The position numbers and the translations under genes are program-made. From IMG/VR virus record IMGVR_UViG_3300007735_000784, positions 7,238-71,237 of that record: a DNA stretch of 64,000 nucleotides. One strand, 5' to 3'. This document shows, in pieces, positions 151-32,311 of the stretch. The stretch comes from a virus. A model generated the notes under the pieces. The model was not told the origin of the DNA. It saw only the letters and a program-made list of their open reading frames with translations, and ran no database searches. Positions within the stretch are counted from its first letter, which is position 1; each line of letters opens with the position of its first letter.

Positions 151-151
151 T

Positions 152-2740: not shown

Positions 2741-3345
2741 GAAGTTATGATGAAATAAAGAAGCAAGTAATGAGTAAAGGATATACATGGTTTTCAAAGC
2801 CACTATCCCTTAACTTTATCTGGGAGAGAACAAGCTATAAAGCTACAAATATTTTTGATGATTGGCTCCATGTATGTTATTTAGATGATAAGGGAGATAA
2901 GAAAGTAGTATCCCTTCATGCTACTACAAAGCCAGGATTAAAAGGATCATTGTTAGAACCGGTAATTGTAGAAGGAATAAGAGGAACCGCTATTATCGAA
3001 GCAGGACAATACCGAGAAGCATGGCAATTTAGGGATACCGATAAGGAGTTTTCAAAATGCCCATATTTTAGGCAGATTGGGAAACTTAACTATTATAGGG
3101 ACGGAAATAAGGATAGGATAATTGACAAGGTAAATAGGCAGGTAGCTAAGTTATTTGGCACCCATTGGCATAGAATGAGTAATAACAATACGTATGGATC
3201 TGGGCAGGTTAATAATTGGTCGCTAGGATGTCTTGGAGTTCCGCATCCTGAGTGGGTATTATTATTCCCTATAGTGAGAGAATCGGTTGAAAGATATGGT
3301 GATAAATTTACAGGAACGATTATAGATGATTTTCCCCAAGCGTAA
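2737..3345 (+). CDS. Putative endolysin / L,D-transpeptidase-like cell-wall enzyme
   Basis: ATTKPG, YRDGNKD, GTHWHR and NWSLGC (His...Cys) motifs typical of Bacteroidota-phage lysins. Confidence 0.55.
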   Translation: MRSYDEIKKQVMSKGYTWFSKPLSLNFIWERTSYKATNIFDDWLHVCYLDDKGDKKVVSLHATTKPGLKGSLLEPVIVEGIRGTAIIEAGQYREAWQFRDTDKEFSKCPYFRQIGKLNYYRDGNKDRIIDKVNRQVAKLFGTHWHRMSNNNTYGSGQVNNWSLGCLGVPHPEWVLLFPIVRESVERYGDKFTGTIIDDFPQA

Positions 3346-7231: not shown

Positions 7232-7241
7232 ACACGAATAT

Positions 7242-17246: not shown

Positions 17247-17523
17247 TGAGATCTACACAGTAATAGGCTTATGTATAGGGATGGCAGGAATATTAAGTGC
17301 CGTTATTGGAGCCTGGATAAACATAAAAACAAAATTAGCGTCTATGGAAGTAAAGATGCTTGAATTAGAAAAGGACATCCGAAAGACAGACGAAGATGTA
17401 AAGGATCACAAGTCAGAGGTTAAAGTTTACATGGATAAGGTAGATAAGAAGCTAGGCAATATCCACGAAGGTATCAATGATATTAAGGTTACGTTGGCTA
17501 ATAAGCAGGACAGGAAGGGTTAA
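17236..17523 (+). CDS. Membrane protein with coiled coil (lysis-cassette type)
   Basis: N-terminal TM helix followed by heptad repeats. Confidence 0.5.
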   Translation: MISNEIYTVIGLCIGMAGILSAVIGAWINIKTKLASMEVKMLELEKDIRKTDEDVKDHKSEVKVYMDKVDKKLGNIHEGINDIKVTLANKQDRKG

Positions 17524-17762
17524 AGCTCTTTATCCATTAGTTTTAAAACCTGCGTCCATACCTCTTTAGTTTTATAAGACGTTTCAATAAGAACTCCACC
17601 AGAAAGATAGATGTCTAATCCATATAGCTTAGTATCGTCTTTAAATGCGTAGTATCCCTTAAAATCTATTTGATTAAATGATACCATTACAATTCCATCT
17701 ATGTAGATTTTTACTCTACCGTTGTAGATGTCTAGGGTGTAGGTGTGTTGATCGTTATTCAT
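17520..17762 (-). CDS. Hypothetical protein
   Basis: 80-aa ORF ending the minus-strand block. Confidence 0.5.
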   Translation of the reverse strand: MNNDQHTYTLDIYNGRVKIYIDGIVMVSFNQIDFKGYYAFKDDTKLYGLDIYLSGGVLIETSYKTKEVWTQVLKLMDKEL

Positions 17763-17771
17763 GTTTATTTT

Positions 17772-18278
17772 TTACGTTAATTTAAGGTAAAGGTTGCGTT
17801 CTATTTCATATAATTTCTCGATCCTACTTACATTCTTATTATAAATGAGCATCTTGGTTCTATCTTGGAACTCCCATTTTTCGTGGCAGCCGTTGGTTCC
17901 TAATCCACAGCAGAGTATATTGTGATTCAGAGGGTGAAACGCCAACTTTGGGTGTGCCCCTCTGGTGAGTATATGGCTTACATAACTATGGCTAAATTCT
18001 TTTAGCTCCATCCCACATTCTTCGCATTTACATATCCCCTGTTTATTGGCCGACAATAACCACATAGCCTGATAGTATTCCATTTTCTTGGCCGATTTAG
18101 CCTTGGTTTTATCTGAGGGCTTATACGAAAGTTTGCGTTTTGTCTTATTTTTAATAGCCTTGAAATGCGTTTCACATATCCTAGAGCAAACAGATTGAAG
18201 TGGTCTAATAGGCATAAAATCCAACTTACAATACTTGCACTTCTTTATTTTAAGGATGGGATTCATATAGATTTCCAA
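17772..18278 (-). CDS. NinG/Rap-like HNH nuclease
   Basis: CKYC..FMP.RPLQ.VCS..C N-terminus; CEECG...SHIL.RGAHP.LAF...N...LC...CH. Confidence 0.65.
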   Translation of the reverse strand: MEIYMNPILKIKKCKYCKLDFMPIRPLQSVCSRICETHFKAIKNKTKRKLSYKPSDKTKAKSAKKMEYYQAMWLLSANKQGICKCEECGMELKEFSHSYVSHILTRGAHPKLAFHPLNHNILCCGLGTNGCHEKWEFQDRTKMLIYNKNVSRIEKLYEIERNLYLKLT

Positions 18279-18481
18279 TTTAATGAAGGCTTAAACTCCC
18301 TAAATCTAATCACCGGATCTATATTCAATAGATGACAAGCCTCAATATACTCATTGAGTGTGAGTTTCTCCAGGCGAATATTAATTCTCTCATAGCTCCA
18401 GCCTGTCATCTGACAAAACTGCTTCATAGTTATCTTTCGCTTTTTTAATTCAGCCTTTAATGCTAATACAAAATTGTTCAT
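18263..18481 (-). CDS. XRE-family HTH regulator
   Basis: LKKRKITMKQFCQMTGWS...LTLNEYIEACHLL; ATG at 18481 downstream of a minus-strand TATATTTG (18498-18505). Confidence 0.6.
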   Translation of the reverse strand: MNNFVLALKAELKKRKITMKQFCQMTGWSYERINIRLEKLTLNEYIEACHLLNIDPVIRFREFKPSLNWKSI

Positions 18482-18541
18482 AGTGTCTAATTTTGTACAA
18501 ATATAGTGCAATTATATGAAACGCCAAAGTTAGCGTTGTAA

Positions 18542-18985
18542 TTAATACATCTCTGGGTTCTTATATACCCATACACATTCTAGTATAGGAGCATCACCTG
18601 AGAATATAAGTTTTGATGGCTTATCTATGAACTCTACCCCGTTCCATTTATATACAGCAGGGTGCCTTACATAAGCTATTCCAGATGGTGTGTGTATCTT
18701 TGTAGCAAAGCAGGTTGTTACTCTTAAAATGCTGCTATTAGGGAATGAGAATAGGTTTCCATAAACGTCTGTGGTCTTAATAAAGCCCGTATATTGGCCT
18801 CTGGTGTCCATATCATTAATGATGTCTAATGCAAGTATAGTTAGCGTTTCGGTCTTAATTTCAGCCACTATAATAGGCAAATATGCCCTAGTCTTTTCAA
18901 TATTAATCTTAAACTTCATGCCGGTCTTATCTCTGTTTTTAATAATGGATTCAAACGCTTTTCTAAATTCTGTTTCCATTTGCAT
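18542..18985 (-). CDS. Hypothetical protein
   Basis: 147-aa ORF. Confidence 0.5.
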   Translation of the reverse strand: MQMETEFRKAFESIIKNRDKTGMKFKINIEKTRAYLPIIVAEIKTETLTILALDIINDMDTRGQYTGFIKTTDVYGNLFSFPNSSILRVTTCFATKIHTPSGIAYVRHPAVYKWNGVEFIDKPSKLIFSGDAPILECVWVYKNPEMY

Positions 18986-19137
18986 AGTTTATAGGCTCCT
19001 GTTATAATAGTGCTGCCATCACGAGTATTGATGAGGGCATACTTTTTTGGAACGCTATCTTTGCCTTCTGTGGGTTTCTTTTTAAGGGGATCTTCTCCCG
19101 TCTTTTTGGCTATTGCAGCTCGTTGATATTCATTCAT
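18916..19137 (-). CDS. Hypothetical protein
   Basis: 73-aa ORF. Confidence 0.4.
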   Translation of the reverse strand: MNEYQRAAIAKKTGEDPLKKKPTEGKDSVPKKYALINTRDGSTIITGAYKLCKWKQNLEKRLNPLLKTEIRPA

Positions 19138-19435
19138 AGTTTTACAATCGCTTTTTAAAAATAATGCTTTTTGAAAACGCTTTTTAAAATTGCATATTAA
19201 GCCCTGGAACCGCTATTATATATTATGTATAGTTTGCGTTTCAGATGCTATTAATGCCGTTCTAAGGGGTTCTGTTCTTATGGGTTTCTTACCTGCGTTA
19301 CTATTATTCCTGTCCCAATAAGCCGGTTCACTATCTGTGAATAGCTTAATTTTGTGGTGAGTGTGTGCTGGTGGTTTGCCCGTCTTAAAATAAAGGTTTT
19401 ATATCTCATAGGTTAGTTATTTAAAGTTAGCGTTT

Positions 19436-19675
19436 CTAATAGTTATACTCTACACTAATAGCCCGTTCAAAATTATACATATTGTCCAGGGCTGCCAAAT
19501 ATTGATAGGTGGCTAGTTCGTTGTCCATCTCGGTCCATTCTTTTGTAAATTCTGGGCTGTTATTAAATAGCAGGTTCCCCCAATCAATCAAATGATTGTA
19601 GAATAATTCTGTGGGATATATGGACCTTAGCCAATTTTGGCGTTTCTCCAAGTGGTTTGGCATATTTATTTGCAT
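19436..19675 (-). CDS. Hypothetical protein
   Basis: 79-aa ORF. Confidence 0.5.
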   Translation of the reverse strand: MQINMPNHLEKRQNWLRSIYPTELFYNHLIDWGNLLFNNSPEFTKEWTEMDNELATYQYLAALDNMYNFERAISVEYNY

Positions 19676-19785
19676 AACTATTAAGGTATAAAATTGATAT
19701 TATTAATAGAGTGAATGTTATTATAAGCCAAACAAGGCCGCTAAAATTATGCTTTTTAATCATTGGTTAGAATGCTTTTTGAAAA

Positions 19786-19816
19786 TATACCCGTTTTAAG
19801 CGTTTGCAAACGGGTA
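19786..19816. terminator. Hairpin between minus-strand genes
   Basis: TATACCCGTTT...AAACGGGTATA inverted repeat. Confidence 0.45.
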
Positions 19817-19843
19817 TAATATTAGTAATGAGCTAGTTGTAAA

Positions 19844-20134
19844 TTACCCAAAAATTGATTTAGGTAGGTTCTTGTACATCTCTTGCATTTCAATAACATA
19901 AGTACAATAAACTAAAGTATCTTCTAGCTGCTTAATGTAATAAATAGCTGCTTTTTCGTCTTTTAGTTTTAGATATTCTTCTATTTCATCTAAAACTTCA
20001 TAGGAGCAATCTCTTTGCACTCTCATATCATCATGAAATTGATCGAAAATAGGAGTATCTGCGTCTAATTCATTATACTTTAAGCTAATTTGATTAACAA
20101 AAGTACAAGCGGCCTTTAACAAGTTCTTCTTCAT
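19844..20134 (-). CDS. Hypothetical protein
   Basis: 96-aa ORF with the conserved leader motif. Confidence 0.55.
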   Translation of the reverse strand: MKKNLLKAACTFVNQISLKYNELDADTPIFDQFHDDMRVQRDCSYEVLDEIEEYLKLKDEKAAIYYIKQLEDTLVYCTYVIEMQEMYKNLPKSIFG

Positions 20135-20391
20135 GGCTATTAATTTAGTGGTTTATAAAAAATGCTTTTTAAAATTATGGTATTAATGTAGGTGCGTTAT
20201 TTAACAGATAATATTGGCGTTTCTAGTTAAAGCTATCTAGCTTTTCCTTCCACTTATGGAATAGGAGTGCTTGTCCTTGTGGTTCTTTATAGTTTAATAT
20301 CATTCGTTTGCATGGTTCTAGCTGATCCGGTAATTTACAGGACTCAATGCATCTGGCAATAAAAAAAAAGGAGTTCATGGTTTTACGGGTT

Positions 20392-20589
20392 TTAAGGTTT
20401 GCATTTTATTTTTCTTAAATTGTACGGGGTTGCATCTAAATAATAATCAAAAGTATAGCCTAATTTATTTAGCTTCTTTAATAGTTTATCAGATAACATA
20501 TATGTATCACAGTCGCCAAAATTATCTATAATATTCCTAACTTTTTTAGGTAATAATTCAGGGCGTTCAAAAAAATCTATATTTGTCAT
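20392..20589 (-). CDS. Hypothetical protein
   Basis: 65-aa ORF (DFFERPELLP...GYTFDYYLDA.PY.L). Confidence 0.55.
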   Translation of the reverse strand: MTNIDFFERPELLPKKVRNIIDNFGDCDTYMLSDKLLKKLNKLGYTFDYYLDATPYNLRKIKCKP

Positions 20590-20613
20590 ATTAATTAAAG
20601 TTTGCGTTTTATA

Positions 20614-21231
20614 TTATTCGTAAATTTCAATGTTAAACAGGTCCTGAGTTATACATTCTGCATCAATTACTCTTTTAAAGTCAAAATACACGTTACCTCC
20701 GCATTCAATTTCTTCATAGGTGTTTGTTTCCTCTGCTGCGTCTTTATATATGCTCCAAAGGTCGTTGCCTTCTTTTACTTCAATATCATTAGCGGCAAAT
20801 TTCTTTTTGATGAGGTCTAAAAAATCCCTTTCTCCAAAGTTATTCCAGGCTTCTTCTATTAGTTCCTGCTCTACTTCGCTGCAATCTTCATCATCTATGC
20901 ACGGGTAATTATATAGGGCCGTTAAAGTTTCTATTATTTCCTCGTTGTCACATTGGCCGTTTATATATATTATCTCGCTGTTGTATGCTCCATTAATTTT
21001 AATTACGTTTGGATCGTCTTTGAATAGGTCCATAAATATACGTACATTGGACCTTTCTACATGGTAACTATTATCATAGTCTCCAAAAGATAGTAATTTG
21101 CATTGGAACCAGTCGTTGTTCTTGTTTGCGCTGGCCTGGTGTGCTGCGTATTGGCTTGGGCGGCCTTCTTCGTCCTTTACCCAACTATCATAGCTTTTAA
21201 ATTCGTCGAATAATGTGGTTTTGTTTTGCAT
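20614..21231 (-). CDS. Acidic hypothetical protein
   Basis: 205 aa, Asp/Glu-rich, conserved leader. Confidence 0.6.
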   Translation of the reverse strand: MQNKTTLFDEFKSYDSWVKDEEGRPSQYAAHQASANKNNDWFQCKLLSFGDYDNSYHVERSNVRIFMDLFKDDPNVIKINGAYNSEIIYINGQCDNEEIIETLTALYNYPCIDDEDCSEVEQELIEEAWNNFGERDFLDLIKKKFAANDIEVKEGNDLWSIYKDAAEETNTYEEIECGGNVYFDFKRVIDAECITQDLFNIEIYE

Positions 21232-21266
21232 GGTCGTTTTATTTTAGTGGTTATTAATTAGTTTCA

Positions 21267-21312
21267 CCAGGTTTAGCCGGTCCCGTTTTTAGTGGGTGCC
21301 GGCGGCCTGGTT
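21267..21312 (-). terminator. GC-rich hairpin (terminator or RNA processing site)
   Basis: ACCAGG..GCCGG.CCC...GGG.GCCGGC..CCTGGT nested stem between two minus-strand genes. Confidence 0.5.
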
Positions 21313-21329
21313 TGTTTTGGATTTAATTT

Positions 21330-21905
21330 TTAATAAATTTCTCCGTCCTCTGTAAATTCATATTTATTAGCTTCTATTGTTTCACTAATATATTCGTCTG
21401 AGTCCATCCAGTCAAAGTCCTTTTCAGCTATTTCCTCATAACTTGGTATCTCTAGGTCTAAGTTAGTGGTATGCTTGTCTGGATTCCGTAAAAAATCAAT
21501 GATAGGTTGTAAAAAGTCAAAGTCATAACATACTCCCGTTAGTGGGCAGTTGTCCAGGTTATTAGTTTTGAATACTTTTGATAATCTAACCTTTACCGGA
21601 TTATCATATTTATACTGAAAATAGGAGTTTTTAATTTTCCCGTCTGCGTGTTTGCTTATCCGGTTTGTATCGGTCCAAAGGTGGCTTAAATTATTTTGGA
21701 TCCATGCAACAAGTCTGGCGCCTTTAATTTCCTCCTGTATGTGTCTGAGGTCTTTATATATCTTCTCTGCGGCCTTGTAACTTGCAAGCCTATCAGGTCC
21801 CCAAAAGTCATCATTGTCCTGGTACCTGTAGTTATTTATTGCAGTCTGTTTAGCTTCTTCGCTGAGTTCAGCAAATTTGTATAATTTAATTTCGATGGTT
21901 TTCAT
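21330..21905 (-). CDS. Phage hypothetical protein
   Basis: MKTIEIKLYKFAELSEEAKQ.AI ... IEANKYEFTEDG termini, a recurrent phage family pattern. Confidence 0.65.
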   Translation of the reverse strand: MKTIEIKLYKFAELSEEAKQTAINNYRYQDNDDFWGPDRLASYKAAEKIYKDLRHIQEEIKGARLVAWIQNNLSHLWTDTNRISKHADGKIKNSYFQYKYDNPVKVRLSKVFKTNNLDNCPLTGVCYDFDFLQPIIDFLRNPDKHTTNLDLEIPSYEEIAEKDFDWMDSDEYISETIEANKYEFTEDGEIY

Positions 21906-22142
21906 GGTCGTTAATTTAGTGGTTATTAATTAAAGTTTGCGTTTCGTATTATAGTAGCGTTTTAATTTTATCTTCTGCCTCTTGTTGACTATTAGCGTAT
22001 ACAATATATGTACTTCGGTCAATTATTATTCTATATTGTTTCATAGTATATAAGCTATTAAATTAATAATATAAACTATACCGGCTAGCCATAGCATCCA
22101 GCCGTAAATTAGTAGGTCTTTAATGAGTGTTTTAAATTTCAT

Positions 22143-23123
22143 GGTTTCAATTATTGGTTACGTCTATATAAACGGTAGCTAATTATTAATGTTTCATTTA
22201 TTATGCTATATTTGTATAATTATTTACTAATTAGTAGCTAACTTGCTTATAATCAATGAGTATAAATTAATCAGGAAATAAGGGTTAAAATAAGCTATTT
22301 AAGCGGCTAATTAGTATAGTGTTGAGTATTAATACTATAACCGTTTGTAAGCGTTTAATTCTATTAGGTATATGGGCTGCTTATTATCTAAAGTTGGCGT
22401 TTTATATATAAGCCTCTCCCCTATATATAACATAAGCCTATAACCACTTCTGGACCTTACCTAAAAATTAAGGAGAAAATTAAAAATAAGGCGGGGGTGT
22501 TGGTTCTTTACTCCAGGTCAATGGCTGCTGCCGGTCCTCATTTCCTTTTATGATTGCTTTATTTGTGTGCCTTTCAACATGTCTTTAATTAGTCTTATAA
22601 TATTTATTATGTTAAGTAGCTATTTTAGTGGGCTTATTCTTCTGCTTCTGCTATGTTGTTGCATCAGCCCCTCCCCTACTCTATCATGTTTGCTTTATTT
22701 ATTATTATTCATTGGCTTAATTAGCTTTATCCCTTTGTTTATGGGGGTTGCCAGTGAGTGATGGTCCCTTTTATATTGGGTTTTGGTTTTGATCTTGCGT
22801 CTGGGGGGTGGGTTTCGGGATTAATTTCCCTTTGGACCACCCCCACCCGTCAATTTTTAACGGTAACTCCCCCTTCCCACCTATAAAAATTTTATTTTTT
22901 ATTTTTTTTAATTTTAGTGGGGGTTAATTAGTGAAATTAGTGGTATAAAAATGAAACTTTAAATTAGTGGCTGCGTTAAATAGGGTAAATTAGTTATTTT
23001 TGGCGATAAATGGGTGATATTTTAGAATGTAATATATTGATAATCAATAGTGGGTTATAAAAATCACCGAGCCGAGCCAAAATAAAAAAAGCGACAAAAT
23101 AGTAATTAATTAAAATAAGGGAT
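22143..23123. other. ~1-kb non-coding divergence region (candidate origin or genome-end region)
   Basis: Coding strand switches here; G/C tracts, GGGGGTGG...CCACCCCC inverted repeat near 22803-22845, TTAGTGG repeats. Confidence 0.45.
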
Positions 23124-25007: not shown

Positions 25008-25133
25008 TAACGTTTTGCGTGTATAAGAAGTGGCGGAATTAAAGCATAAAATTAACTTGAAAGCAATGCAGTTGAATATAACACTAATGTTTCTAAATGG
25101 CACAAAACCCGCCATTTTTTATACACGCTGTTA
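25008..25133 (+). repeat. Hairpin element E1
   Basis: TAAC GTTTT GCGTGTATAAGAAGTGGCGG ... CCGCCATTTTTTATACACGC T GTTA. Confidence 0.85.
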
Positions 25134-25163
25134 TGTGTATGTGGCGGTTTAAATAACGAAAAT

Positions 25164-25412
25164 ATGAAGATAAAAGCAATTTACATTAAGAACTTAAAAA
25201 TGAGTGAAGGCAAAGTTGCTGCACAAGTGGCACACGCTGTTAAGAATTTAGGAATAACGCCAACTGATTGTGATATAATAGTTTTAGGTGTTTCAACCAC
25301 TAAGTTTAATGAATTAACAGCACAGCACGAATGTTACATTCAACGAGATAAAGGATTAACAGAAGTAGAAAGTGGTACAGCAACAGCAGCGGCTTGGATA
25401 GATGTTCCGTAG
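25164..25412 (+). CDS. Minimal peptidyl-tRNA hydrolase Pth2-like protein (cassette 1)
   Basis: LKMSEGKVAAQVAHA and I.RDKGLTEVE.GT.T match PTH2 family signatures. Confidence 0.7.
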   Translation: MKIKAIYIKNLKMSEGKVAAQVAHAVKNLGITPTDCDIIVLGVSTTKFNELTAQHECYIQRDKGLTEVESGTATAAAWIDVP

Positions 25413-25480
25413 CCATTACATGTAACGAACAAGTATTTTAGTAGTGCGATTAATAGCAGAAAGTAACAATGAAACAAGAA

Positions 25481-25564
25481 TAACGGGTTGCGGCTTTGCG
25501 AAGTTGCTTAAAACACATAATATGGAAAAATACAGATTGATACAATTTTGCAAAGCCGCTGTTA
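25481..25564 (+). repeat. Hairpin element E2
   Basis: TAAC GGGTT GCGGCTTTGCGAAGTTG ... CAATTTTGCAAAGCCGC T GTTA. Confidence 0.85.
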
Positions 25565-25677
25565 GCAGTAGGTTCGTACCTATTCGCTATTACTTAATAG
25601 AGTTTTTCTGTTGGGTAATTTGCGGAATTGATTTTTACAAAAATTATCAAAGGTTCTATAAACGAACTTACCGCTAA
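25522..25677 (+). CDS. Small hypothetical protein (cassette 2)
   Basis: ATG in E2 loop (MEKYRLIQFCKAAVSSRF...); stop is the TAA of the next TAAC. Confidence 0.45.
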   Translation: MEKYRLIQFCKAAVSSRFVPIRYYLIEFFCWVICGIDFYKNYQRFYKRTYR

Positions 25678-25801
25678 CGTTTTCGGGCTTTGTGTCCGTT
25701 GGCGAATTAAACCACAAATGTTAAATTAAAAACAAATATTGATTATGAGCAAAAAAGTTGAATTGAAAGACAAAACCGCCAATGGCACAAAAACCGTGTT
25801 A
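25675..25801 (+). repeat. Hairpin element E3
   Basis: TAAC GTTTT CGGGCTTTGTGTCCGTTGGCG ... CGCCAATGGCACAAAAACCG T GTTA. Confidence 0.85.
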
Positions 25802-26026
25802 GGCGTAGGTTTTTATCGCTGTGGCCACTGTGGGCAACCGACAGATAAAGATGGTGAGCCGTTGGATTTAGAAGCGTGTAAAACATGGCAAGCAGATAAA
25901 GCAGAGTTAGTGCATGGAAATTGTTGCGTGCATGAACTACGCCAACGGCAGACAATTATAGTAACGAGGGATATGGCTATTGATGCAGGAGATATGTCGC
26001 TGGAGGGTCAGGAGTGGGTTTGGTAA
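25745..26026 (+). CDS. Small Zn-finger-like protein (cassette 3)
   Basis: ATG in E3 loop; CGHCG...HGNCC, VTRDMAIDAGD..LEG. Confidence 0.6.
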   Translation: MSKKVELKDKTANGTKTVLGVGFYRCGHCGQPTDKDGEPLDLEACKTWQADKAELVHGNCCVHELRQRQTIIVTRDMAIDAGDMSLEGQEWVW

Positions 26027-26035
26027 ACTTACGCC

Positions 26036-26123
26036 TAACGTTTTGCGTATATGAGAAGTGGCACTTGTAGAATGTTGATGTTTAGCACAAATGTTTATGT
26101 GCAATTTCTTATATACGCTGTTA
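26036..26123 (+). repeat. Hairpin element E4
   Basis: TAAC GTTTT GCGTATATGAGAAGTGGCAC ... GTGCAATTTCTTATATACGC T GTTA. Confidence 0.85.
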
Positions 26124-26228
26124 TGTTCTCGTTGCGGTTTATTAACTAAAAACTTAAATCGAATCACAGAAGTAGTATTTATTTTTTTGTGCGGTGGCAA
26201 AAATTAATTTGAAAAATTAAAAAGAATT

Positions 26229-26987
26229 ATGAGTAAGAATATAGAATTAGACAAGTTTTATACACCAAAAGAAACGGCAAGACAATGTATTGAATTGTTT
26301 TTTGAAACATTTACTGATACGACTGAAATAATTGAACCAAGCGCAGGAAATGGTAATTTCAGTTTACAAATACCAAACTGTATTGCTTATGATTTAGAAC
26401 CCGAACACGAAAGTATAATAAGGCAAGATTTTCTTAAACTGGATTTACCTTACAAGAAAGGTAGAGCATTTATTGGAAACCCACCTTTCGGAGATAGAAA
26501 CAATCTTGCGAGAAGTTTTTACAAACACGCTTGTAAAATGGGTGATATGATTGGTTTTATACTCCCAATAAGCCAACTCGAAAATAGTGATAGTTTATAT
26601 CATTTTGACTTGATTAAAAGTGTTGATTTAGGTGTATTAGAATATAGTAATATGAAAGTACATTGCTGTTTCAATTTGTACAAAAGACCAAAGAATGGTA
26701 AACTAAATAGTAAGCCTAAATTAAGTAGTGAATTATTTACAATACATAGAGACGACCAAGATGGTTATAATGAACTTGATTATGATTTATGTATATTTAG
26801 GCGAGGTGCAAGTAGTGGTAAAGAAAAATTTACTGACTTACATACACAAACATATAAGATTGTTGTAAATGATAAAACCAATGTTGAGTATGTTAGAAAT
26901 ACTATATTGAAATTTGATTGGCAGAATTACAAGAAACACCAATCAGCACCAAGTATTAGTAAAAATGATATTTATAGACTTTTTTAA
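26229..26987 (+). CDS. DNA amino-methyltransferase, N6-adenine type (cassette 4)
   Basis: DKFYTP, IEPSAGNG (motif I) then GNPPFG (motif IV). Confidence 0.8.
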   Translation: MSKNIELDKFYTPKETARQCIELFFETFTDTTEIIEPSAGNGNFSLQIPNCIAYDLEPEHESIIRQDFLKLDLPYKKGRAFIGNPPFGDRNNLARSFYKHACKMGDMIGFILPISQLENSDSLYHFDLIKSVDLGVLEYSNMKVHCCFNLYKRPKNGKLNSKPKLSSELFTIHRDDQDGYNELDYDLCIFRRGASSGKEKFTDLHTQTYKIVVNDKTNVEYVRNTILKFDWQNYKKHQSAPSISKNDIYRLF

Positions 26988-27063
26988 AAAGCGAGGGAAG
27001 AAAAAATAAATACGGTATGATACCACAAAACTATAATCGAAGCACAATTGTAGCAATGGAGCA

Positions 27064-27152
27064 TAACGTATGGTGCTATGAGAAGGTTTGCCTTGCAGAA
27101 ATGTTCAAATTACCTAAAATGTTATTGGCAAACTTGCTTATAGCACGTGTTA
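27064..27152 (+). repeat. Hairpin element E5
   Basis: TAAC GTATG GTGCTATGAGAAGGTTTGCC ... GGCAAACTTGCTTATAGCAC GT GTTA. Confidence 0.85.
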
Positions 27153-27198
27153 CATGCAGTTTTTGTGCGTTGGATTAGTAAAAAATTAAAAGTAAAAT

Positions 27199-27804
27199 AT
27201 GAAGAAAGTATTGAATTTATTTGCAGGAATTGGGGGCAACAGAAAACATTGGAAAGATGTAGAAGTAACCGCAATAGAATACAATGAGGAAATTGCCAAT
27301 GTTTATAAGCAATTACATCCAAACGACAATGTTATCGTTGCTGATGCACACGAATATTTGACTAAACATTGGAGAGAGTTTGATTTTATATGGAGTAGCC
27401 CACCATGCCAAAGCCACAGCAAAGTTAGAATGATGGCAAGTAAAGGTGGAAGTTATGATGCTGTAATGCCTGATATGAGATTGTGGGCTGAAATAATCTT
27501 TTTGCAGAACTTTACAAAGAATACGGATATAAAGTTTGTGGTTGAAAATGTAAAACCATACTACGAACCATTTGTAAAACCAACAACAAAACTTGGTAGG
27601 CACTTATTTTGGGCAAACTTTGAAATACCACAAACTGAAATTAAAGACGGACTTACACACAATGAAAGAGGAAGTTCTGAAAAAGGTTATTTCGATTTGC
27701 GACCATATAAAATGGAACACAGGAAAGACCAGATTATTCGTAATTGCGTTGACCCCAATGTCGGAGATTACGTTCTTCGGTGTGCGTTGGGAAATTGCAC
27801 ATAA
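27199..27804 (+). CDS. C5-cytosine DNA methyltransferase, short form (cassette 5)
   Basis: LNLFAGIGG, SSPPCQSHS, VVENV, GRHLFW. Confidence 0.85.
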   Translation: MKKVLNLFAGIGGNRKHWKDVEVTAIEYNEEIANVYKQLHPNDNVIVADAHEYLTKHWREFDFIWSSPPCQSHSKVRMMASKGGSYDAVMPDMRLWAEIIFLQNFTKNTDIKFVVENVKPYYEPFVKPTTKLGRHLFWANFEIPQTEIKDGLTHNERGSSEKGYFDLRPYKMEHRKDQIIRNCVDPNVGDYVLRCALGNCT

Positions 27805-27861
27805 CGAACAGGGCTATACGCTCGGTTTGTTTTTCACAAACTGGCGTTATAGCCCATGTTA
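27802..27861 (+). repeat. Hairpin element E6 (minimal, 60 bp)
   Basis: TAAC GAACA GGGCTATACGCTCGGTTTGT TTTTC ACAAACTGGCGTTATAGCCC AT GTTA. Confidence 0.85.
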
Positions 27862-27921
27862 CCTGTCTGGTTTGTTTTTAATTTTTGTGGAAAGGAAGTC
27901 ACGCTTAAACGTATAATAGAT

Positions 27922-28272
27922 ATGAAAACTAACAAAGAAGAAAAAGAATACATAGAAAAATGCCTTGATGCCTACCAAAATGGAGGTGTGCTGTGGCTTA
28001 TTGAAAGGACTGATACAAATGAGTTCTGCTATAAAGAATTGAAGATGTGGCAAAGCAATAAGCCCGAAACGTGGAGAGATACATTATTGTGGTCAAAAGA
28101 CATTTCATTTTTCCATGTATTCTTTTTAACCAAAGAAGATGCTGAAAAGGAATTGCAAGAAAATATGTTTATGCAATTTACAGAAGGAGGTTGCCCTTGT
28201 TGTGGACACGGCTCAACTGAAATACCAATTGCAATTACTGAACACGAATTTGTGCGGATGGGGAAAAAATAA
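27922..28272 (+). CDS. Hypothetical protein (cassette 6)
   Basis: Probable ATG 27922 (MKTNKEEK); VLWLIER...CPCCG...ITEHEFV. Confidence 0.55.
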   Translation: MKTNKEEKEYIEKCLDAYQNGGVLWLIERTDTNEFCYKELKMWQSNKPETWRDTLLWSKDISFFHVFFLTKEDAEKELQENMFMQFTEGGCPCCGHGSTEIPIAITEHEFVRMGKK

Positions 28273-28287
28273 AAACAAACTTGCAGG

Positions 28288-28393
28288 TAACGGTTCGGGT
28301 ATTGCCGTTCGCTGTGTTCACAAATTAGATGCGTTCATGATTCGTGAACAGATGAAAATAATGAACAGCCACAATGACGGTAATACCATGTTA
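28288..28393 (+). repeat. Hairpin element E7
   Basis: TAAC GGTTCG GGTATTGCCGTT ... GACGGTAATACC AT GTTA. Confidence 0.75.
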
Positions 28394-28500
28394 TAAGATG
28401 GAGGTGGCGAGAAAAAAGGTTTGTAGTATCGGTTGGAAATCTGAAACCTTGAAATACCCATTAAGCTCGACAGTAGCCAACCATAGCCACCTCTTTCTTA

Positions 28501-28613
28501 TAACGTTGGGTATTGGCGTTGTTGCCTCACAAATGTTTAATTGAAATACTAAATTTAATATTATGAAAAAAGATAAATTGAAACACGAAAGCAATAACGC
28601 CAATGTGCTGTTA
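28501..28613 (+). repeat. Hairpin element E8
   Basis: TAAC GTTGG GTATTGGCGTTGTTGC ... GCAATAACGCCAATGTGC T GTTA. Confidence 0.85.
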
Positions 28614-28829
28614 TGTGCTGATAATTTTACGGGTTACTTCGATGATGCTAACAAACCAATTTTTGTTGGTGATAAATTGAAAAGCGAATGGAACTATGAA
28701 GTTATTGTTGTAAAAGACGAAGATGGTGATTACAGTGGAAAATTGGTTTGTGATAATAACCATAGTTGCAAAAACATTCCTTATGCTTTAAATAAAGGTA
28801 AAGGTTATAGTAAAATTATTTGCACATAA
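28563..28829 (+). CDS. YopX-like small protein (cassette 8)
   Basis: FTGYFDDANKPIFVGD resembles the YopX TG..D.NG..IYEGD motif; ATG in E8 loop, stop in the TAAC. Confidence 0.55.
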   Translation: MKKDKLKHESNNANVLLCADNFTGYFDDANKPIFVGDKLKSEWNYEVIVVKDEDGDYSGKLVCDNNHSCKNIPYALNKGKGYSKIICT

Positions 28830-28944
28830 CGTATGGGTATTGGCGAAGTTGCCGAACCGAAAGCTAAATTGAAAAACAAAAGTTGAAATTATGGACGAAA
28901 GTTTAATTGAAAAACAGAACGGCAATTTTGCCAATACCGTGTTA
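28827..28944 (+). repeat. Hairpin element E9
   Basis: TAAC GTATG GGTATTGGCGAAGTTGCCG ... CGGCAATTTTGCCAATACC GT GTTA. Confidence 0.85.
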
Positions 28945-29574
28945 GGTGCAGTGCCTTCTGTGGTGTATAATGAGGATTGTGTAGAGGCTTTAAAACGCTT
29001 TGACGATAACTACTTTGATATTGCTATTGTAGACCCACCTTATGGGCTTGGGAATAGATTAAGCGATGGAGGTGGCAAGCTAAAAAATACTCCTATGGCT
29101 GTGCTTTACAGAGATAAAGATTGGGATGTATTACCAACAGCCGAATATTGGGAGCAGTTGTTTAGAGTAAGCAAAAATCAAATGGTTTTTGGGGCTAATT
29201 ACTTTCTTGAATATTTGCCGAGCAGTAGAGGTATAATTTGTTGGGATAAAAAACAAGATATGCCAACGCTTTCGGCTTGGGAATTAGTTTGGACATCATT
29301 TGATAAGCCGAGCAAAATATACAAGAAAGTAAGCACAGATTTAGACCGCTTTCATCCAACCCAAAAACCTATTGGCGTTTATGATTTTTGCTTACATTTT
29401 GCAAAAGCACAGCCACAAATGAAAATGCTTGACACCCACGTTGGAAGTGGAAGTAGCAGAATAGCTGCCCATAAGATGGGGCTACAATACACAGGATTTG
29501 AAATTGATACAGAATATTATGAGAAACAAGAAAAGCGTTTTAAAGACTTCAAATCACAATTACGGTTGTTTTAG
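28891..29574 (+). CDS. Beta-class N4-C/N6-A DNA methyltransferase (cassette 9)
   Basis: IVDPPYG, HPTQKP, LDTHVGSGSS, GFEID. Confidence 0.85.
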   Translation: MDESLIEKQNGNFANTVLGAVPSVVYNEDCVEALKRFDDNYFDIAIVDPPYGLGNRLSDGGGKLKNTPMAVLYRDKDWDVLPTAEYWEQLFRVSKNQMVFGANYFLEYLPSSRGIICWDKKQDMPTLSAWELVWTSFDKPSKIYKKVSTDLDRFHPTQKPIGVYDFCLHFAKAQPQMKMLDTHVGSGSSRIAAHKMGLQYTGFEIDTEYYEKQEKRFKDFKSQLRLF

Positions 29575-29627
29575 CGGTGTCGGTGGCATTGCACCTAACT
29601 ACTGTATATAAGCAATAAAACTAAAGC

Positions 29628-30108: not shown

Positions 30109-30512
30109 TGGAAAACATAATTAAGGAACTACAAAATCAGATTGCTGCCCTAAATGAAAGACTAACCGCCTTAGAGAATAAGAATAAGCGGTCATCGACA
30201 AAATTAGAGCCGGCAGAATGGAGAACTAACTTTGGCGTTTATAAAAAAGAACTAGACTTAGCATTTAAAACGCTATCTTTGGATACTAATTTCATAGCAG
30301 AACAAGAAAGGTTTAATCCTAATCTCGATATTAAACTATCAATGGAGAAGGCAGTAGTAAACTTCTGGGGAACGGAAGCCGGATGGAAATATAAGAAGAA
30401 GTCAAAAACCAATGACCTTGATTGGAAGCGCACACTCACAAATGCAATAGACATGAATAAAGTTTATAAGCAGAAAGGTCAATTAAATAACCCTTCAACT
30501 ATGGTGTATTAA
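30108..30512 (+). CDS. Putative replication initiator/helicase-loader-like protein
   Basis: Coupled to the primase; NFWG.EAGW.YKKK......DWK.T C-terminal motif. Confidence 0.4.
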   Translation: MENIIKELQNQIAALNERLTALENKNKRSSTKLEPAEWRTNFGVYKKELDLAFKTLSLDTNFIAEQERFNPNLDIKLSMEKAVVNFWGTEAGWKYKKKSKTNDLDWKRTLTNAIDMNKVYKQKGQLNNPSTMVY

Positions 30513-32311
30513 TGCTAGTTATCAACCTAGAAGATAAGTCCGAGCACGAAATAGAGGTAACGAGGGATGGGGAAAACGCCATGCCTTGCCCTGTATGCTC
30601 CAAAGACCGGAAGAAAGAAAGGATTAAATGCTTCTCTTTTAACTATGCTAAAAAAGCAGGCAGGTGCAATCATTGTGGGATAGTGCTGGTGGAGAAGCGA
30701 GAATACATAGAGCCTGTTAAATATAAGAGGCCGGTATTTAAGCAAGAAGCATCTTACCTATCACAGAATGTTATTTCTTGGTTTGCATCCAGGTCCATAT
30801 CTATTAAAACGCTAAGTTTATTTAAGATTACAGAAGGCAAAGAATGGATGCCACAGGTAGGAGCCGAAAGAAACACTATCCAATTTAATTATTTCAGAAA
30901 CGGGGAATTAATCAATACCAAGTTTAGGGATGGCGAGAAGAATTTTAAATTAGTATCGGAGGCCGAGCTTATTCCTTATAATTTAGATGCAGTCATTAAT
31001 GGTAAGCAGGTAATATGGGTAGAGGGGGAAATGGATTGCTTATCTGTGCATGAATCAGGGCTTCATAATGTAATTAGCGTTCCAAACGGAGCCACAGTAG
31101 GGAAAAACAACCTAACCTACCTTGATAATTGCATAGATTTATTCTCAGAAGATACTGAGCATATCCTAGCCTTTGATAATGACTTAGCCGGTAACGCACT
31201 TAGGGATGAATTTGTAAGAAGGCTTGGGGCCGAGAAATGTAGTAAGGTTACGTTCTTAGATTGCAAAGATGCCAATGAGTGCTTAGTGAAGTACGGAAGG
31301 GATGCTGTTAAAAACGCTATACTTAGCAAGCAGGAGTTTCCGGTAACAGGGATATTTACCGCCAAAGATATTAATGATGACATTGATGACTATTTTTATA
31401 ATGGGCTACCGGAAGGATCAGATATTGGGCTGCCTTATTTTGACGAGTTATTAAAGTTCCACCCAGGTTACATCACTACCATCACCGGTATCCCTTCGCA
31501 TGGTAAGTCAGAGTTCTTGGATTTTATAATGACTAGCTTAAATATAAGGCATAAATGGTCATTTGGCATTTACTCCCCAGAGAACTATCCATTGCAGCTA
31601 CATTTTAGTAAGATAGCGGAGAAGCTATTAGGTAAGTCGTTTAGTGTTATGAACGAAGCCGAACTTGGCGTTGCAAAAAAATACTTCAATGACAACTTCC
31701 ACTTCATCAAGCCGGAGGAGAATAATAAACTAGAGAACATACTAGAGAAAACAAAATACCTTGTAAGGAAGAAAGGCATACGGGCATTTATAATAGATGC
31801 TTGGAATAAGCTAGAACATGATTGGCAAGGATCTGAAACGCAATACATATCTAAGGAGTTAGATAAACTTGCAACCTTCTGTGAAAGAAACGGGGTGCAT
31901 CTATTTTTAGTAGCGCATCCGACCAAGATTAGCAAGGATAAACAGACAGGGCTATATGAAGTGCCTAATTTATATTCAATAAGCGGATCTGCCAATTTTT
32001 TTAATAAGACACATAATGGTATTTCGGTGTATAGGAATTTTACCACTAACCGGACAGAGATATACGTACAGAAGGTAAAGTTTAAGCATTGGGGTAAGCA
32101 TGGGATGGTAGAATTAGAGTGGAACCCTGCTAATGGAAGATACCACAAGTACACACCGGATTCTGTTAATTGGATTACAGGGCAGAGCAGACAAGTAGAG
32201 TTTGTAGAGGAAAACGCCAAAGTTAGCGTTCCAACAGAACGAAAATTAATACCTTTAGCAGAAGCATTAAGTAAAAATATTCCCACAGGGGACGAAGAAC
32301 CACCATTTTAA
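30512..32311 (+). CDS. Bifunctional primase-helicase (T7 gp4/Twinkle type)
   Basis: CPVC Zn finger, TOPRIM VEGEMD/DND.AG/KDANE, Walker A GIPSHGKS, IIDAWN, LVAHP. Confidence 0.9.
   Translation: MLVINLEDKSEHEIEVTRDGENAMPCPVCSKDRKKERIKCFSFNYAKKAGRCNHCGIVLVEKREYIEPVKYKRPVFKQEASYLSQNVISWFASRSISIKTLSLFKITEGKEWMPQVGAERNTIQFNYFRNGELINTKFRDGEKNFKLVSEAELIPYNLDAVINGKQVIWVEGEMDCLSVHESGLHNVISVPNGATVGKNNLTYLDNCIDLFSEDTEHILAFDNDLAGNALRDEFVRRLGAEKCSKVTFLDCKDANECLVKYGRDAVKNAILSKQEFPVTGIFTAKDINDDIDDYFYNGLPEGSDIGLPYFDELLKFHPGYITTITGIPSHGKSEFLDFIMTSLNIRHKWSFGIYSPENYPLQLHFSKIAEKLLGKSFSVMNEAELGVAKKYFNDNFHFIKPEENNKLENILEKTKYLVRKKGIRAFIIDAWNKLEHDWQGSETQYISKELDKLATFCERNGVHLFLVAHPTKISKDKQTGLYEVPNLYSISGSANFFNKTHNGISVYRNFTTNRTEIYVQKVKFKHWGKHGMVELEWNPANGRYHKYTPDSVNWITGQSRQVEFVEENAKVSVPTERKLIPLAEALSKNIPTGDEEPPF

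Follow-up and report, generated by a model that had tools for sequence, protein, structure and literature searches.

Can a virus that encodes no integrase carry its accessory genes as integron-type cassettes? This question is raised by a 64,000-nucleotide stretch of viral DNA (hereafter the window; positions 7,238 to 71,237 of IMG/VR record IMGVR_UViG_3300007735_000784). A previous sequence-only reading had reported nine attC-like hairpins here, E1 to E9, and had proposed a system for shuffling phage genes that is either a divergent integron or one using an unrecognised recombinase. We demonstrate the anatomy of the array, the covariation of its hairpin arms, the pairing of cassette ends, cassette-bounded variation in cultured relatives, and linkage to a recombinase in other phages and in chromosomes. 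End pairing, TAAC-bounded variation and recombinase linkage all support the proposal. We consider it likely that positions 25008 to 29609 hold some ten mobile gene cassettes of integron type in an array, which would depend on an Xer-like recombinase acting in trans.

Hairpin sites and their folding strand

The nine-hairpin array is confirmed. Checked on the letters, every element starts with TAACG, ends with GTTA and lies on the + strand. Folding E1 to E9 as DNA on both strands gave, for each, a single long stem with an AT-rich loop. The claim that the + strand folds best is true by free energy for eight of the nine; it fails for E7, at −13.9 (+) versus −14.1 kcal/mol (−). A rule-based scan of the whole window confined strong hairpins (12 to 20 paired) to the + strand between 25008 and 28944. 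It returned 10 matches on + and 2 on −, the remainder being weak, and 20 shuffles used as a control gave 0 to 4 matches each.

We also built a covariance model from 13 elements, five of them from the window. It recovered all nine window elements on the + strand, with scores spanning 18 to 107 bits, and the four elements outside the training set scored 66.0, 62.1, 29.8 and 17.9 bits (the last, E6, is weak, E 0.24). No further element was found with this model in the 64 kb, where the top minus-strand score was 23.4 bits. None of the Rfam families matches the hairpins. Searches with the model did find elements in Bacteroidota phages and chromosomes.

The observation that arms differ between copies while pairing is kept was borne out. 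In the 13 sequences, which were chosen from 21 for a common alignment register, 88.3% of cells are paired, compared with 66.0% in shuffles. Furthermore, 18 of 25 pairs have changed on both sides, a level of compensation that none of 500 shuffles reached. The G.T wobbles noted earlier are likewise present, two of them being conserved (in 13/13 and 11/13 sequences), and the asymmetric spacer is real: a one-sided bulge of 3 to 4 nt follows TAACG. No two bases stood out clearly as an extrahelical pair. When set against the core RYYYAAC / GTTRRRY, RYYY is full in 1/9 elements and RRRY in 2/9, with 2 to 3 of the 4 positions present in the others. The core consensus of the hairpin family itself is NNNTAACG / TGTTANNN.

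Cassettes and their cargo

Single cargo segments, all read on the + strand, alternate with the hairpins. E1 (25008 to 25133; 126 nt, 107.1 bits) opens cassette 1, whose gene (25164 to 25412) encodes 82 aa resembling a phage peptidyl-tRNA hydrolase of PTH2 type (phrog_31188) and has DNA matches to genes annotated as peptidyl-tRNA hydrolase in Clostridioides phages. A tenth boundary TAAC, absent from the earlier list, then begins a 58-nt hairpin-less remnant (25423 to 25480). The 8 nt before this TAAC pair with the 8 nt after the GTTA of E1 at 6/8 contiguous positions. Cassette 2 has its start codon (ATG 25522) within the loop of E2 (25481 to 25564; 84 nt, 68.1 bits), and its 51-aa open reading frame (25522 to 25677) stops on the TAA of the E3 TAAC. 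E3 (25675 to 25801; 127 nt, 104.2 bits), 73% identical to a site of Flavobacterium phage morran9-1, also holds a gene start in its loop and has a coding 3′ arm; the 93-aa product of cassette 3 (25745 to 26026) has no family match. E4 (26036 to 26123; 88 nt, 68 bits) shares 77% identity with a site of the uncultured megaphage LR745206 and precedes a DNA methyltransferase of 252 aa (cassette 4, 26229 to 26987; phrog_5172, phrog_799).

A second DNA methyltransferase (201 aa; phrog_363) makes up cassette 5 (27199 to 27804), between E5 (27064 to 27152; 89 nt, 29.8 bits) and E6, in whose TAAC it finds its stop codon, TAA. E6 (27802 to 27861) is a short form of 60 nt, with a fold z of −7.0 and a weak score of 17.9 bits. 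The open reading frame of cassette 6 (27856 to 28272; at most 138 aa, without family match) may in reality start at ATG 27923. E7 (28288 to 28393; 106 nt, 56 bits) is followed in cassette 7 (28398 to 28494) by no open reading frame; the segment is a structured RNA-like element of about 90 nt with long matching ends. Both remaining cargo genes start in the loop of their hairpin: that of cassette 8 (28563 to 28829; 88 aa, without family match) at ATG 28563 in E8 (28501 to 28613; 113 nt, 62.1 bits), with its stop in the TAA of the E9 TAAC, and that of cassette 9 (28891 to 29574) at ATG 28891 in E9 (28827 to 28944; 118 nt, 66 bits). The latter encodes a third DNA methyltransferase (227 aa; phrog_67), 43% identical to one from morran9-1. 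Beyond it lies a hairpin-less, attI-like terminal site, TAACTACTGTATAT (29596 to 29609), also absent from the earlier list; the 8 nt before it pair 8/8 with the 8 nt after the GTTA of E9.

The cargo is thus of an anti-restriction and accessory kind. Besides the three DNA methyltransferases and the PTH2-like protein, it includes small proteins of unknown function and one small structured RNA-like element. Genes had been suggested to lie downstream of their own hairpins, and all window cargo genes indeed do so on the folding strand. In 4/9 window elements the start codon sits inside the loop and translation covers the 3′ arm.

Cassette ends and turnover among near-identical phages

The 8 nt after each GTTA are complementary to the 8 nt before the next TAAC. 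Pairing holds at 59/72 positions in the window (permutation mean 39.7, sd 3.7; 0/20000 equal), at 109/112 in morran9-1 and at 117/120 in hemulen6-1 (0/20000 permutations each). Far fewer positions (35, 65 and 60, respectively) pair when the partner is taken from the flank upstream of the same hairpin. Complementary ends of this type are the signature of integron cassettes. Because end pairing is looser in the window than in Lillamyvirus (59/72 versus 109/112) and one unit is a remnant, the window array may be decaying.

Cassettes have moved in relatives. The only differences among eight Lillamyvirus genomes of about 99.5% identity are blocks, and 9/9 of their breakpoints fall on a boundary TAAC. 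Comparison of cassette content in related genomes thus revealed gains, losses and a move at TAAC in another phage genus, and every such change between these near-identical phages is bounded by TAAC. The cassette that moved is internal in morran9-1 and sits at the terminal site in lillamy9-7. Similarly, Freya_10, a Polaribacter phage, carries an insertion of 12 genes relative to Freya_1, placed exactly beside the integrase. The borders of this insertion read ...TTTAC followed by AAC and ...GCTAAC followed by ACCCC, and the Freya sites score weakly with the covariance model (43, 26 and 20 bits). Use of the terminal site as an insertion point was seen only in lillamy9-7 and Freya_10. According to the sequence-only reading, fixed gene order in relatives or arms without covariation would leave these elements as RNA regulatory hairpins; the opposite was seen in both respects, with turnover in another phage genus and covarying arms.

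The window lineage itself is harder to follow. The array is absent from the nearest relatives that we fetched; at 71% primase identity, these are too remote to reveal any turnover of cassettes in that lineage. On contigs from other metagenomes, likeness to the window ends exactly at the TAAC of E3, E4 and E7. Circular cassettes had been suggested as a further sign of mobility, and among contigs we found a joint from 29592 back to 28827, which could reflect either a circle or a tandem copy.

Could this turnover occur with no dedicated enzyme? The hairpins might simply be patches of likeness, with the genes between them shuffled by general recombination, whether homologous or based on microhomology. 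Some exchanges could indeed be due to ordinary homologous recombination at the hairpins: hairpin subfamilies are 80 to 94% identical across unrelated phages, and one Lillamyvirus junction shares 16 nt. A NinG/Rap-like protein is also encoded by morran9-1 and by the window phage (weakly, 20.7 bits against a cutoff of 25.4). There is a precedent in the PeSLs of T4-type phages. In the available portions of the papers describing them, these are stem-loops between small accessory genes in hyperplastic regions, mediating modular insertions, deletions and replacements and forming mini-circles (Arbiol et al. 2010; Comeau et al. 2014). As described there, PeSLs are a conserved promoter plus terminator, with an early promoter of sigma-70 type, and are exchanged by homology. 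The window hairpins are unlike them: arms vary between copies, those of neighbouring elements being mostly wholly different; junctions share only about 5 letters, several in Lillamyvirus just aTAACg; and the family is linked to a site-specific recombinase. The near-complete complementarity of unit ends in morran9-1 and hemulen6-1 is unexpected under homology-driven exchange, and the strict strand bias and recombinase linkage described below also argue against it. We therefore regard shuffling by homology as unlikely and favor site-specific exchange of integron-type cassettes.

Recombinase linkage and relation to integrons

The earlier remark that no integrase is in view holds across the whole 71,237-bp record. 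A search of the rest of the genome revealed no tyrosine, serine or Y1 recombinase (no PF00589 match and no remnant). The absence of a Y1 enzyme bears on a further alternative. In IS200/IS605 and REP/RAYT systems, a conserved tetranucleotide lies a few bases 5′ of the foot of a hairpin that folds in a strand-specific manner, and by analogy the window elements could be ends or targets of such an HUH (Y1) transposase system, cutting beside TAAC. The phage has no match to Y1_Tnp (PF01797) at E ≤ 1, and the enzyme linked to such arrays elsewhere belongs to the Xer/IntI kind of tyrosine recombinases, which makes an HUH system highly improbable.

That enzyme is a short Xer-like tyrosine recombinase of about 267 aa. 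We surveyed 196 viral stretches that encode a relative. Near the recombinase, 300 hairpins lie upstream in sense orientation, compared with 4 upstream in antisense and 6 + 6 downstream. Of the 61 recombinase loci whose upstream flank spans 1.5 kb or more, 51 have at least two hairpins. Among the 40 terminal sites listed from recombinase-encoding viral contigs, 23 start with TAACTA, and most of these are found 32 to 110 nt before the recombinase match. The terminal site of the window conforms to this TAACTA-type motif, with no integrase after it. Co-location thus suggests that the Xer-like recombinase serves hairpin arrays.

Arrays of the same family are also present in Bacteroidota chromosomes. 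A pattern scan gave at least 120 chromosomal matches, with Bacteroidota-type names in 72 of the 80 listed, and the covariance model gave 153 matches in 80 loci, with 18 to 62 matches in each of five isolate genomes. Large arrays lie beside a recombinase; in 3/3 examined, a tyrosine recombinase is at the array end. In 4/4 chromosomal arrays the hairpins fold on one strand and the genes are read from the other, and therefore the strand-specific fold is not tied to mRNA.

This is relevant to the possibility that the hairpins are mainly RNA elements of early mRNA, which process or stabilize transcripts or hold a start codon in an open AU-rich loop, with exchange as a by-product. In phages the folding strand is indeed nearly always the sense strand (300 versus 4 in the survey; 9/9 in the window), the loop start codons and translated 3′ arms described above fit such a role, and G.T wobbles suit RNA equally with single-stranded DNA. 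Nevertheless, an RNA role does not account for the opposite orientation in chromosomes, the ties to a tyrosine recombinase and a conserved terminal site, or the fall of all nine breakpoints between near-identical phages on TAAC. It also leaves unexplained why the last 8 nt of a unit pair with its own post-hairpin 8 nt, and the lack of an Rfam match does not favor it. We judge an RNA function to be quite unlikely as the main one, and the integron-type reading is again preferred.

The resemblance to integrons, including sedentary chromosomal integrons, is extensive. They likewise have structure-conserved imperfect hairpins with AAC...GTT bounds, one folding strand and crossover in the core, along with complementary cassette ends and a tyrosine recombinase of the Xer/IntI branch. 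Complete integrons have a hairpin-less primary site beside the recombinase gene, as do complete versions of the hairpin arrays. There are also clear differences. The lower stem of the hairpin family is about 12 to 13 bp, compared with the 7-bp core of an integron attC, and the spacer is the one-sided bulge of 3 to 4 nt. By convention, an integron cassette has a top-strand open reading frame with its own attC after it; this canonical orientation is present in 4/4 chromosomal arrays and absent in the window. In phage arrays, unlike integrons, the strand that folds is also the sense strand of the genes; each gene follows its own site, often beginning within the loop, and the recombinase gene comes after the cassettes and reads in the same direction.

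Note that attC clusters in virulent phages have already been published (Qi et al. 2023, PMC9892861). The available text of that study counts as a CALIN any group of two or more predicted attC sites that has no integron integrase close by, reports 17 of them in virulent phages using integron software, and discusses the transfer of bacterial cassettes. The window, with nine sites and no recombinase in the genome, would be a CALIN only if its sites count as attC-type. Among the phages in that text is Polaribacter phage P12002L, which, like the window phage, is a virulent flavobacterial phage with DNA methyltransferase cargo, attC-type sites and no integrase. Two P12002L sites were detected with IntegronFinder/HattCI, and IntI1 recombined one of them with attI1 in E. 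coli, on the bottom strand only (Qi et al. 2023). We find that P12002L has the same TAAC...GTTA hairpins, on the gene-sense strand. The portion of that paper available to us has no dedicated recombinase of phages or Bacteroidota, terminal site, inverted orientation rule or turnover between near-identical phages, and our literature searches turned up no account of the recombinase, of the terminal site, of inverted gene orientation or of natural shuffling.

The P12002L experiment, together with the integron-like cores, sizes, folding strand and end pairing, would also suit ordinary bacterial integron attC sites that were captured by phages and are served by a classical IntI. The linked recombinases fit this poorly. 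They are 265 to 347 aa long (one is 473 aa), their best family is NF040815, of XerA type, and they reach 150 to 215 bits on TIGR02249, below its cutoff of 265. The TIGR02249 match falls in two stretches, with the middle of the model unmatched; an additional IntI-specific domain is what defines IntI in the accessible text of Ghaly et al. (2022). Gene orientation in the phages is inverted, and for Bacteroidetes the available part of the IntegronFinder 2.0 paper reports no more than In0 elements and a single complete integron, that of Salinibacter. Service by a classical IntI is thus very unlikely, and an array-linked Xer-like enzyme remains our preferred recombinase.

From these features we can outline how the array would work. 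On the + strand, each unit consists of TAA and C-G on either side of the putative cut, a bulge of 3 to 4 nt, an arm, an AT-rich loop, the second arm, (T)GTTA, N8, cargo and N′8. Because N′8 is complementary to N8, a circularised unit would carry a complete site, with a lower stem of about 12 to 13 bp, a 5′ bulge and a long upper stem. The + strand would fold as single-stranded DNA, and strands would be exchanged inside TAACG, where the hairpin has its 5′ foot, in a geometry corresponding to that of the bottom strand of an integron attC. The probable enzyme is the Xer-like tyrosine recombinase of about 267 aa whose gene, in many other phages, lies about 40 nt past such a terminal site and, in Bacteroidota chromosomes, is found at the same end of the array. 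It would join single-stranded E1 to E9 with a TAACTAYTRTATAT site, and new units would enter at the hairpin-less terminal site at 29596.

Since the phage has no recombinase, its array is an orphan of CALIN type, for which the enzyme is needed in trans. Movement would therefore depend on an enzyme of the host or of a co-infecting phage, or else the array is a fossil; it may be active in its own phage. CTX-phage integrates at dif via host XerCD, on a hairpin of one phage DNA strand, and may by analogy illustrate how a phage site can be served in trans. It differs in having a single site for the whole phage genome, not a cassette array with its own linked recombinase. The anti-restriction genes of this phage would thus be swappable units arranged in a row and linked, in the manner of an integron, by sites that fold into DNA hairpins.

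Folded sites and cassette boundaries in the phage array

The array is carried by an IMG/VR phage record of 71,237 bp with a 127-bp direct terminal repeat; the window spans bases 7238-71237 of it. Nearly all genes of the window are on the + strand, with a single minus-strand block (17520-21905), and the array is located approximately 2 to 3 kb inside a rightward early region that begins past a divergent gap (21905-22579). A primase/helicase gene (30512-32311) lies just downstream of it. Scanning the whole window detected no tRNA, and searching it against Rfam at gathering thresholds gave no match.

The sequence-only reading had proposed nine structure-conserved hairpin sites, E1 to E9 (25008-28944, + strand), each opening one cassette. 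We recovered all nine where it had placed them, each starting with TAACG and ending with GTTA. DNA folding gave one long stem of 12 to 23 pairs per element, with an AT-rich loop. The + strand, which had been named as the better folding one, was indeed favored in eight of the nine elements, with E7 folding marginally better on the minus strand. A broad hairpin scan was too noisy and was replaced by a scan anchored on TAAC and GTTA. In this anchored scan, strong hairpins of the window were confined to 25008-28944 on the + strand, and twenty shuffles yielded 0 to 4 hits each.

The pairing of the arms is maintained by covariation, as had also been claimed. In an alignment of 13 elements from the window, two Flavobacterium phages and a megaphage, picked from 21 for their common register, 88.3% of cells were paired, compared to 66.0% in shuffles. 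Compensatory changes on both sides were present in 18 of 25 pairs of this alignment (matched by none of 500 shuffles), and pairing fell to 34 to 49% when partners were slid out of register. Two G.T wobbles are conserved in the site alignment, which explains the strand preference. A covariance model derived from this alignment found all nine elements on the + strand, including four outside its training set, with E6 being weak (17.9 bits). It detected no site beyond these nine in the 64-kb window.

Cassette boundaries are defined by the pairing of cassette ends. For E2 to E9, the 8 nt after GTTA (N8) are complementary to the 8 nt ahead of the following TAAC (N'8) at 7, 8, 6, 6, 6, 7, 7, and 8 of 8 positions, respectively, compared to 1, 6, 3, 4, 3, 4, 4, and 6 in a control using each hairpin's own upstream flank. 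The partner of E1 is a TAAC at 25423, just past the stop codon of its cargo gene (6 of 8 paired, contiguously), and a 58-nt remnant unit lies between 25423 and E2. The last unit closes at the terminal site (29596), an attI-like TAAC without a hairpin, where the preceding 8 nt pair perfectly (8/8) with the 8 nt downstream of E9. End pairing across the window totals 59 of 72 positions, against a permutation mean of 39.7 (sd 3.7; 0 of 20,000 permutations as high). This pairing, including that of the terminal site, thus delimits a unit consisting of TAAC, hairpin, GTTA, N8, cargo, and N'8. As a circle, such a unit would carry a complete site with a 12- to 13-bp lower stem.

Three of the cargo genes encode DNA methyltransferases and one a PTH2-like protein. 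The remaining units carry three small proteins with no family hit, a 51-aa open reading frame (ORF), and, in one case, no ORF at all. In E2, E3, E8, and E9, the loop holds the start codon and the 3' arm is part of the coding sequence. Three units use the TAA of the following TAAC as their stop codon.

The ORF-less cargo of cassette 7 (28398-28494, + strand) folds into a closed multi-stem structure of ~90 nt (−27.9 kcal/mol, z = −2.7). Its sequence matches, at 81% identity, the unannotated spacer that separates the tRNA-His and tRNA-Cys genes in the tRNA clusters of KVP40-type Vibrio phages (positions 1484-1590 of the Vibrio phage KVP40 locus), and two stems show compensatory changes. ARAGORN identified no tRNA in it, and an Rfam search of 28380-28510 at E ≤ 10 returned two chance-level matches only. 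The cargo may be an undescribed small phage RNA that travels as a cassette. Two short motifs were also noted. The loop motif (A)AATGTT(T)AAAT recurs in E3, E4, E5, E8, and one further locus (L005, 3001-3090), and could be a promoter, a protein-binding site, or a sign of shared ancestry. In the broad hairpin scan, a motif of the form AAAGTTAGCGTT recurred near gene boundaries outside the array (~6990, 9206, 19426, and further intergenic positions); it may represent a promoter or a terminator of the phage.

Cassette turnover in related phages, and breaks in metagenome contigs

At the DNA level, E3 has a match in Flavobacterium phage morran9-1 and E4 one in an uncultured 635-kb phage; several such hairpins are present in each of the two phages. 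Morran9-1 is one of a group of Lillamyvirus isolates sharing about 99.5% identity yet mosaic in the array region. We compared cassette content and order across the first 10.5 kb of eight of these genomes. All nine breakpoints fall on a boundary TAAC, within letters common to both partners. As boundary zones make up ~5% of the array, we calculate the probability of nine out of nine by chance to be of the order of 1e-12. End pairing in Lillamyvirus is near-perfect (109/112 and 117/120). One cassette is internal in morran9-1, between two others, and located at the hairpin-less terminal site in lillamy9-7; judged from these sequences, it behaves like a unit that was excised and re-inserted at the primary site. 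Methyltransferases are among the units gained and lost. In Nilsson et al. 2020, efficiency of plating on a second host is linked to carriage of a specific methyltransferase; the words 'hairpin' and 'stem-loop' are absent from the text of that paper.

Among 80 loci related to the window by their primase/helicase, five have at least two hairpins. The closest relatives with long flanks (L017 and L019; 71% primase identity) have a stretch from the early region to the primase that is ~5 kb shorter than in the window. Neither has any hairpin site; the whole array is absent, not merely different. Because the nearest relatives examined are array-less, turnover within the window's own lineage is not traceable.

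We also aligned the contigs of four metagenome runs to the window, noting that contigs cannot reveal starts, ends, or rare circles, and that uncovered bins in runs X3-X5 do not indicate absence. Contigs stop resembling the window exactly at the first TAAC base of E3, E4, and E7, and near that of E1. In one contig, an E9-like methyltransferase directly precedes the E4 unit. Such breaks fit unit boundaries at TAAC. A further contig joint (29592->28827) is compatible with both a cassette circle and a tandem copy. Three other joints (25025->25489, 28307->28869, and 28955->29585) were rejected as cassette junctions due to short sides (18 to 23 letters) or unknown letters between the two sides; they probably reflect look-alike hairpins in other cassettes.

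Chromosomal arrays and a linked tyrosine recombinase

No integrase had been seen near the array, and this extends to the entire phage, from which tyrosine recombinases, resolvases, and Y1 transposases are all absent. The annotation of morran9-1 likewise contains no integrase. Searching downstream of 29596 for a recombinase remnant (tblastn with 80 phage recombinases) gave chance matches only. The window does encode a 164-aa protein (17772-18266, minus strand) that weakly matches NinG/Rap (20.7 bits, under the cutoff) and shares 27% identity with gp047 of morran9-1, a 'recombination protein'; the annotation of Polaribacter phage P12002L also has a NinG/Rap endonuclease. We dropped this protein as a structure-specific hairpin nuclease, given the weak match and that NinG/Rap-like proteins are common in phages.

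The same sites occur in bacterial chromosomes. A pattern scan of one-genome-per-species contigs found at least 120 stretches, with Bacteroidota-type names on 72 among the 80 listed, and the covariance model identified 153 sites on those 80 loci. Five isolate genomes of Pedobacter, Flavobacterium, and Kaistella have 18, 62, 28, 24, and 34 sites according to the model. Genes of four chromosomal arrays are opposite to the folding strand, which is the classical integron arrangement. A tyrosine recombinase is located at the array end that matches the 3' end of the folding strand in all three accessible chromosomal arrays. The best family for these recombinases is an XerA-type model (208 to 228 bits; cutoff 220), and the integron-integrase model matches them in two stretches at 192 to 215 bits (cutoff 265).

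Several peculiarities were observed among these chromosomal loci. In two of them (L217 and L219), the recombinase gene points the same way as the cassette genes and has a hairpin site directly after it (at 23 nt in L217), which makes it look like a first cassette. The recombinase of the Pedobacter array is 473 aa, with a long N-terminal extension. In Kaistella palustris (L220, 811-5457; G004:C10:52000-61673), mercury-resistance genes, encoding a MerT/HMA protein and a MerA-like oxidoreductase with an HMA domain, lie between the recombinase and the first hairpin; they may be a large first cassette or an insertion.

Using one chromosomal array recombinase as the query, we found a relative in 196 stretches of viral contigs, 80 of which were kept. 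On the recombinase strand of these 80 loci, 300 hairpins lie upstream; there are 4 upstream on the other strand and 6 plus 6 downstream. At least two hairpins are present in 51 of the 61 loci having at least 1.5 kb of upstream flank, and of the 167 hits given by the covariance model, 166 lie on the + strand. A conserved motif follows the TAAC with which the last cassette pairs: TAACTA opens 23 of 40 distinct sites (typically as TAACTATTATATAT), and most TAACTA terminal sites are 32 to 110 nt before the recombinase match. The terminal site of the window (TAACTACTGTATATAAG) fits this motif and is the sole exact match in the window, to a degenerate pattern that was partly derived from the window's own site. 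For the phage array-linked recombinases, the median length is 267 aa. On retesting, three of them scored below the integron-integrase cutoff, with the middle of that model unmatched.

Cultured carriers of the recombinase include the Polaribacter phages Freya_1-10, Danklef, and Leef, and the Cellulophaga phage Ingeline. The ten Freya isolates, all of one species, have genomes of 43,978 to 48,920 bp, with the integrase start shifting from 83 to 4180. Freya_10 carries 12 genes that Freya_1 lacks. They sit precisely between ...TTTAC|AAC and ...GCTAAC|ACCCC, directly 5' of the integrase, and the inserted segment begins with a hairpin site. The strict TAAC/GTTA scan found no array hairpins in Freya phages, whose core is AAC rather than TAAC; the covariance model found three weak-to-moderate matches. 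Bartlau et al. 2021 took the Freya integrase to suggest that these phages might be temperate, and the words 'integron' and 'hairpin' are absent from the text of that paper.

A proposed integron-like system of Bacteroidota and their phages

Integrons are the textbook bacterial device for collecting and reshuffling genes, and are defined by a special integrase. The arrays described here, in virulent phages and across Bacteroidota, follow the same logic, with folded single-strand sites, matching-ended cassettes, and a primary insertion site. They differ from integrons in having a different, shorter recombinase and, in phages, cassettes that face the other way. The folding strand of the phage sites has the same geometry as the bottom strand of integron attCs. 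Recombination would involve the folding strand with crossover at the 5' AAC, and the primary site at its 3' end beside the recombinase. From co-location and the match to attC geometry, we infer that the acting enzyme is a Xer-like recombinase; by the same analogy, its substrate would be single-stranded and its cut would fall within TAACG at the 5' foot of the hairpin. Covariation, end pairing, TAAC-bounded turnover in relatives, and recombinase linkage together support the original proposal of an integron-type gene-shuffling system.

The hairpins might instead act at the RNA level. The fold is antisense to the genes in chromosomes and sense in phages, and is therefore not primarily an mRNA feature. 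Nevertheless, the near-absolute sense orientation in phages, and the genes that start within the loop, leave room for a secondary role in RNA alongside recombination.

The window array itself is an orphan, having sites and a primary site without an enzyme or its remnant. Compared with Lillamyvirus, its cassette ends pair more loosely, and one of its units is decayed. The array may depend on an enzyme supplied in trans, or it may be drifting.

Part of this system is already in print. According to Qi et al. 2023 (PMC9892861), 17 integrase-less attC clusters occur in phages, including one with methyltransferase cargo in P12002L, from which IntI1 recombines one site, on the bottom strand only. We find that P12002L has the same TAAC...GTTA hairpins on the gene-sense strand; attC-type clusters in virulent flavobacterial phages have thus been reported. 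In the literature covered by our searches, we found no account of a dedicated short recombinase, of a conserved terminal site, of inverted cassettes, of chromosomal arrays in Bacteroidota, or of natural turnover between near-identical isolates. For Bacteroidetes, passages of the IntegronFinder 2.0 paper list no complete integron besides one in Salinibacter, the others being In0 elements. The closest phage-specific analogue is the PeSLs of T4-type phages, which recombine by homology between conserved sequences.

On balance, we lean slightly toward the view that Bacteroidota and their phages have an integron-like system of their own, distinct from classical integrons. Its components would be a short Xer-like recombinase that lacks the IntI-specific insert, TAACTATTATATAT as a conserved primary site, and folded sites of about 60 to 130 nt with a 12-bp lower stem. 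Phage cassettes would be reversed, with genes reading through the site and often starting in its loop. For virulent phages, it would be a means of exchanging anti-restriction methyltransferases in the course of a bloom season, either via their own recombinase or, as in the window and Lillamyvirus, via one borrowed in trans.

Methyltransferases are units gained and lost among phages that are otherwise about 99.5% identical. Together with the plating link in Nilsson et al. 2020, such turnover would give a concrete mechanism for rapid change in host range and anti-defence repertoires. Freya, Danklef, Leef, and Ingeline offer laboratory models with the recombinase, and the Lillamyvirus phages offer models without it. 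For integron biology, the system would test whether folded-site recombination needs the IntI-specific domain.
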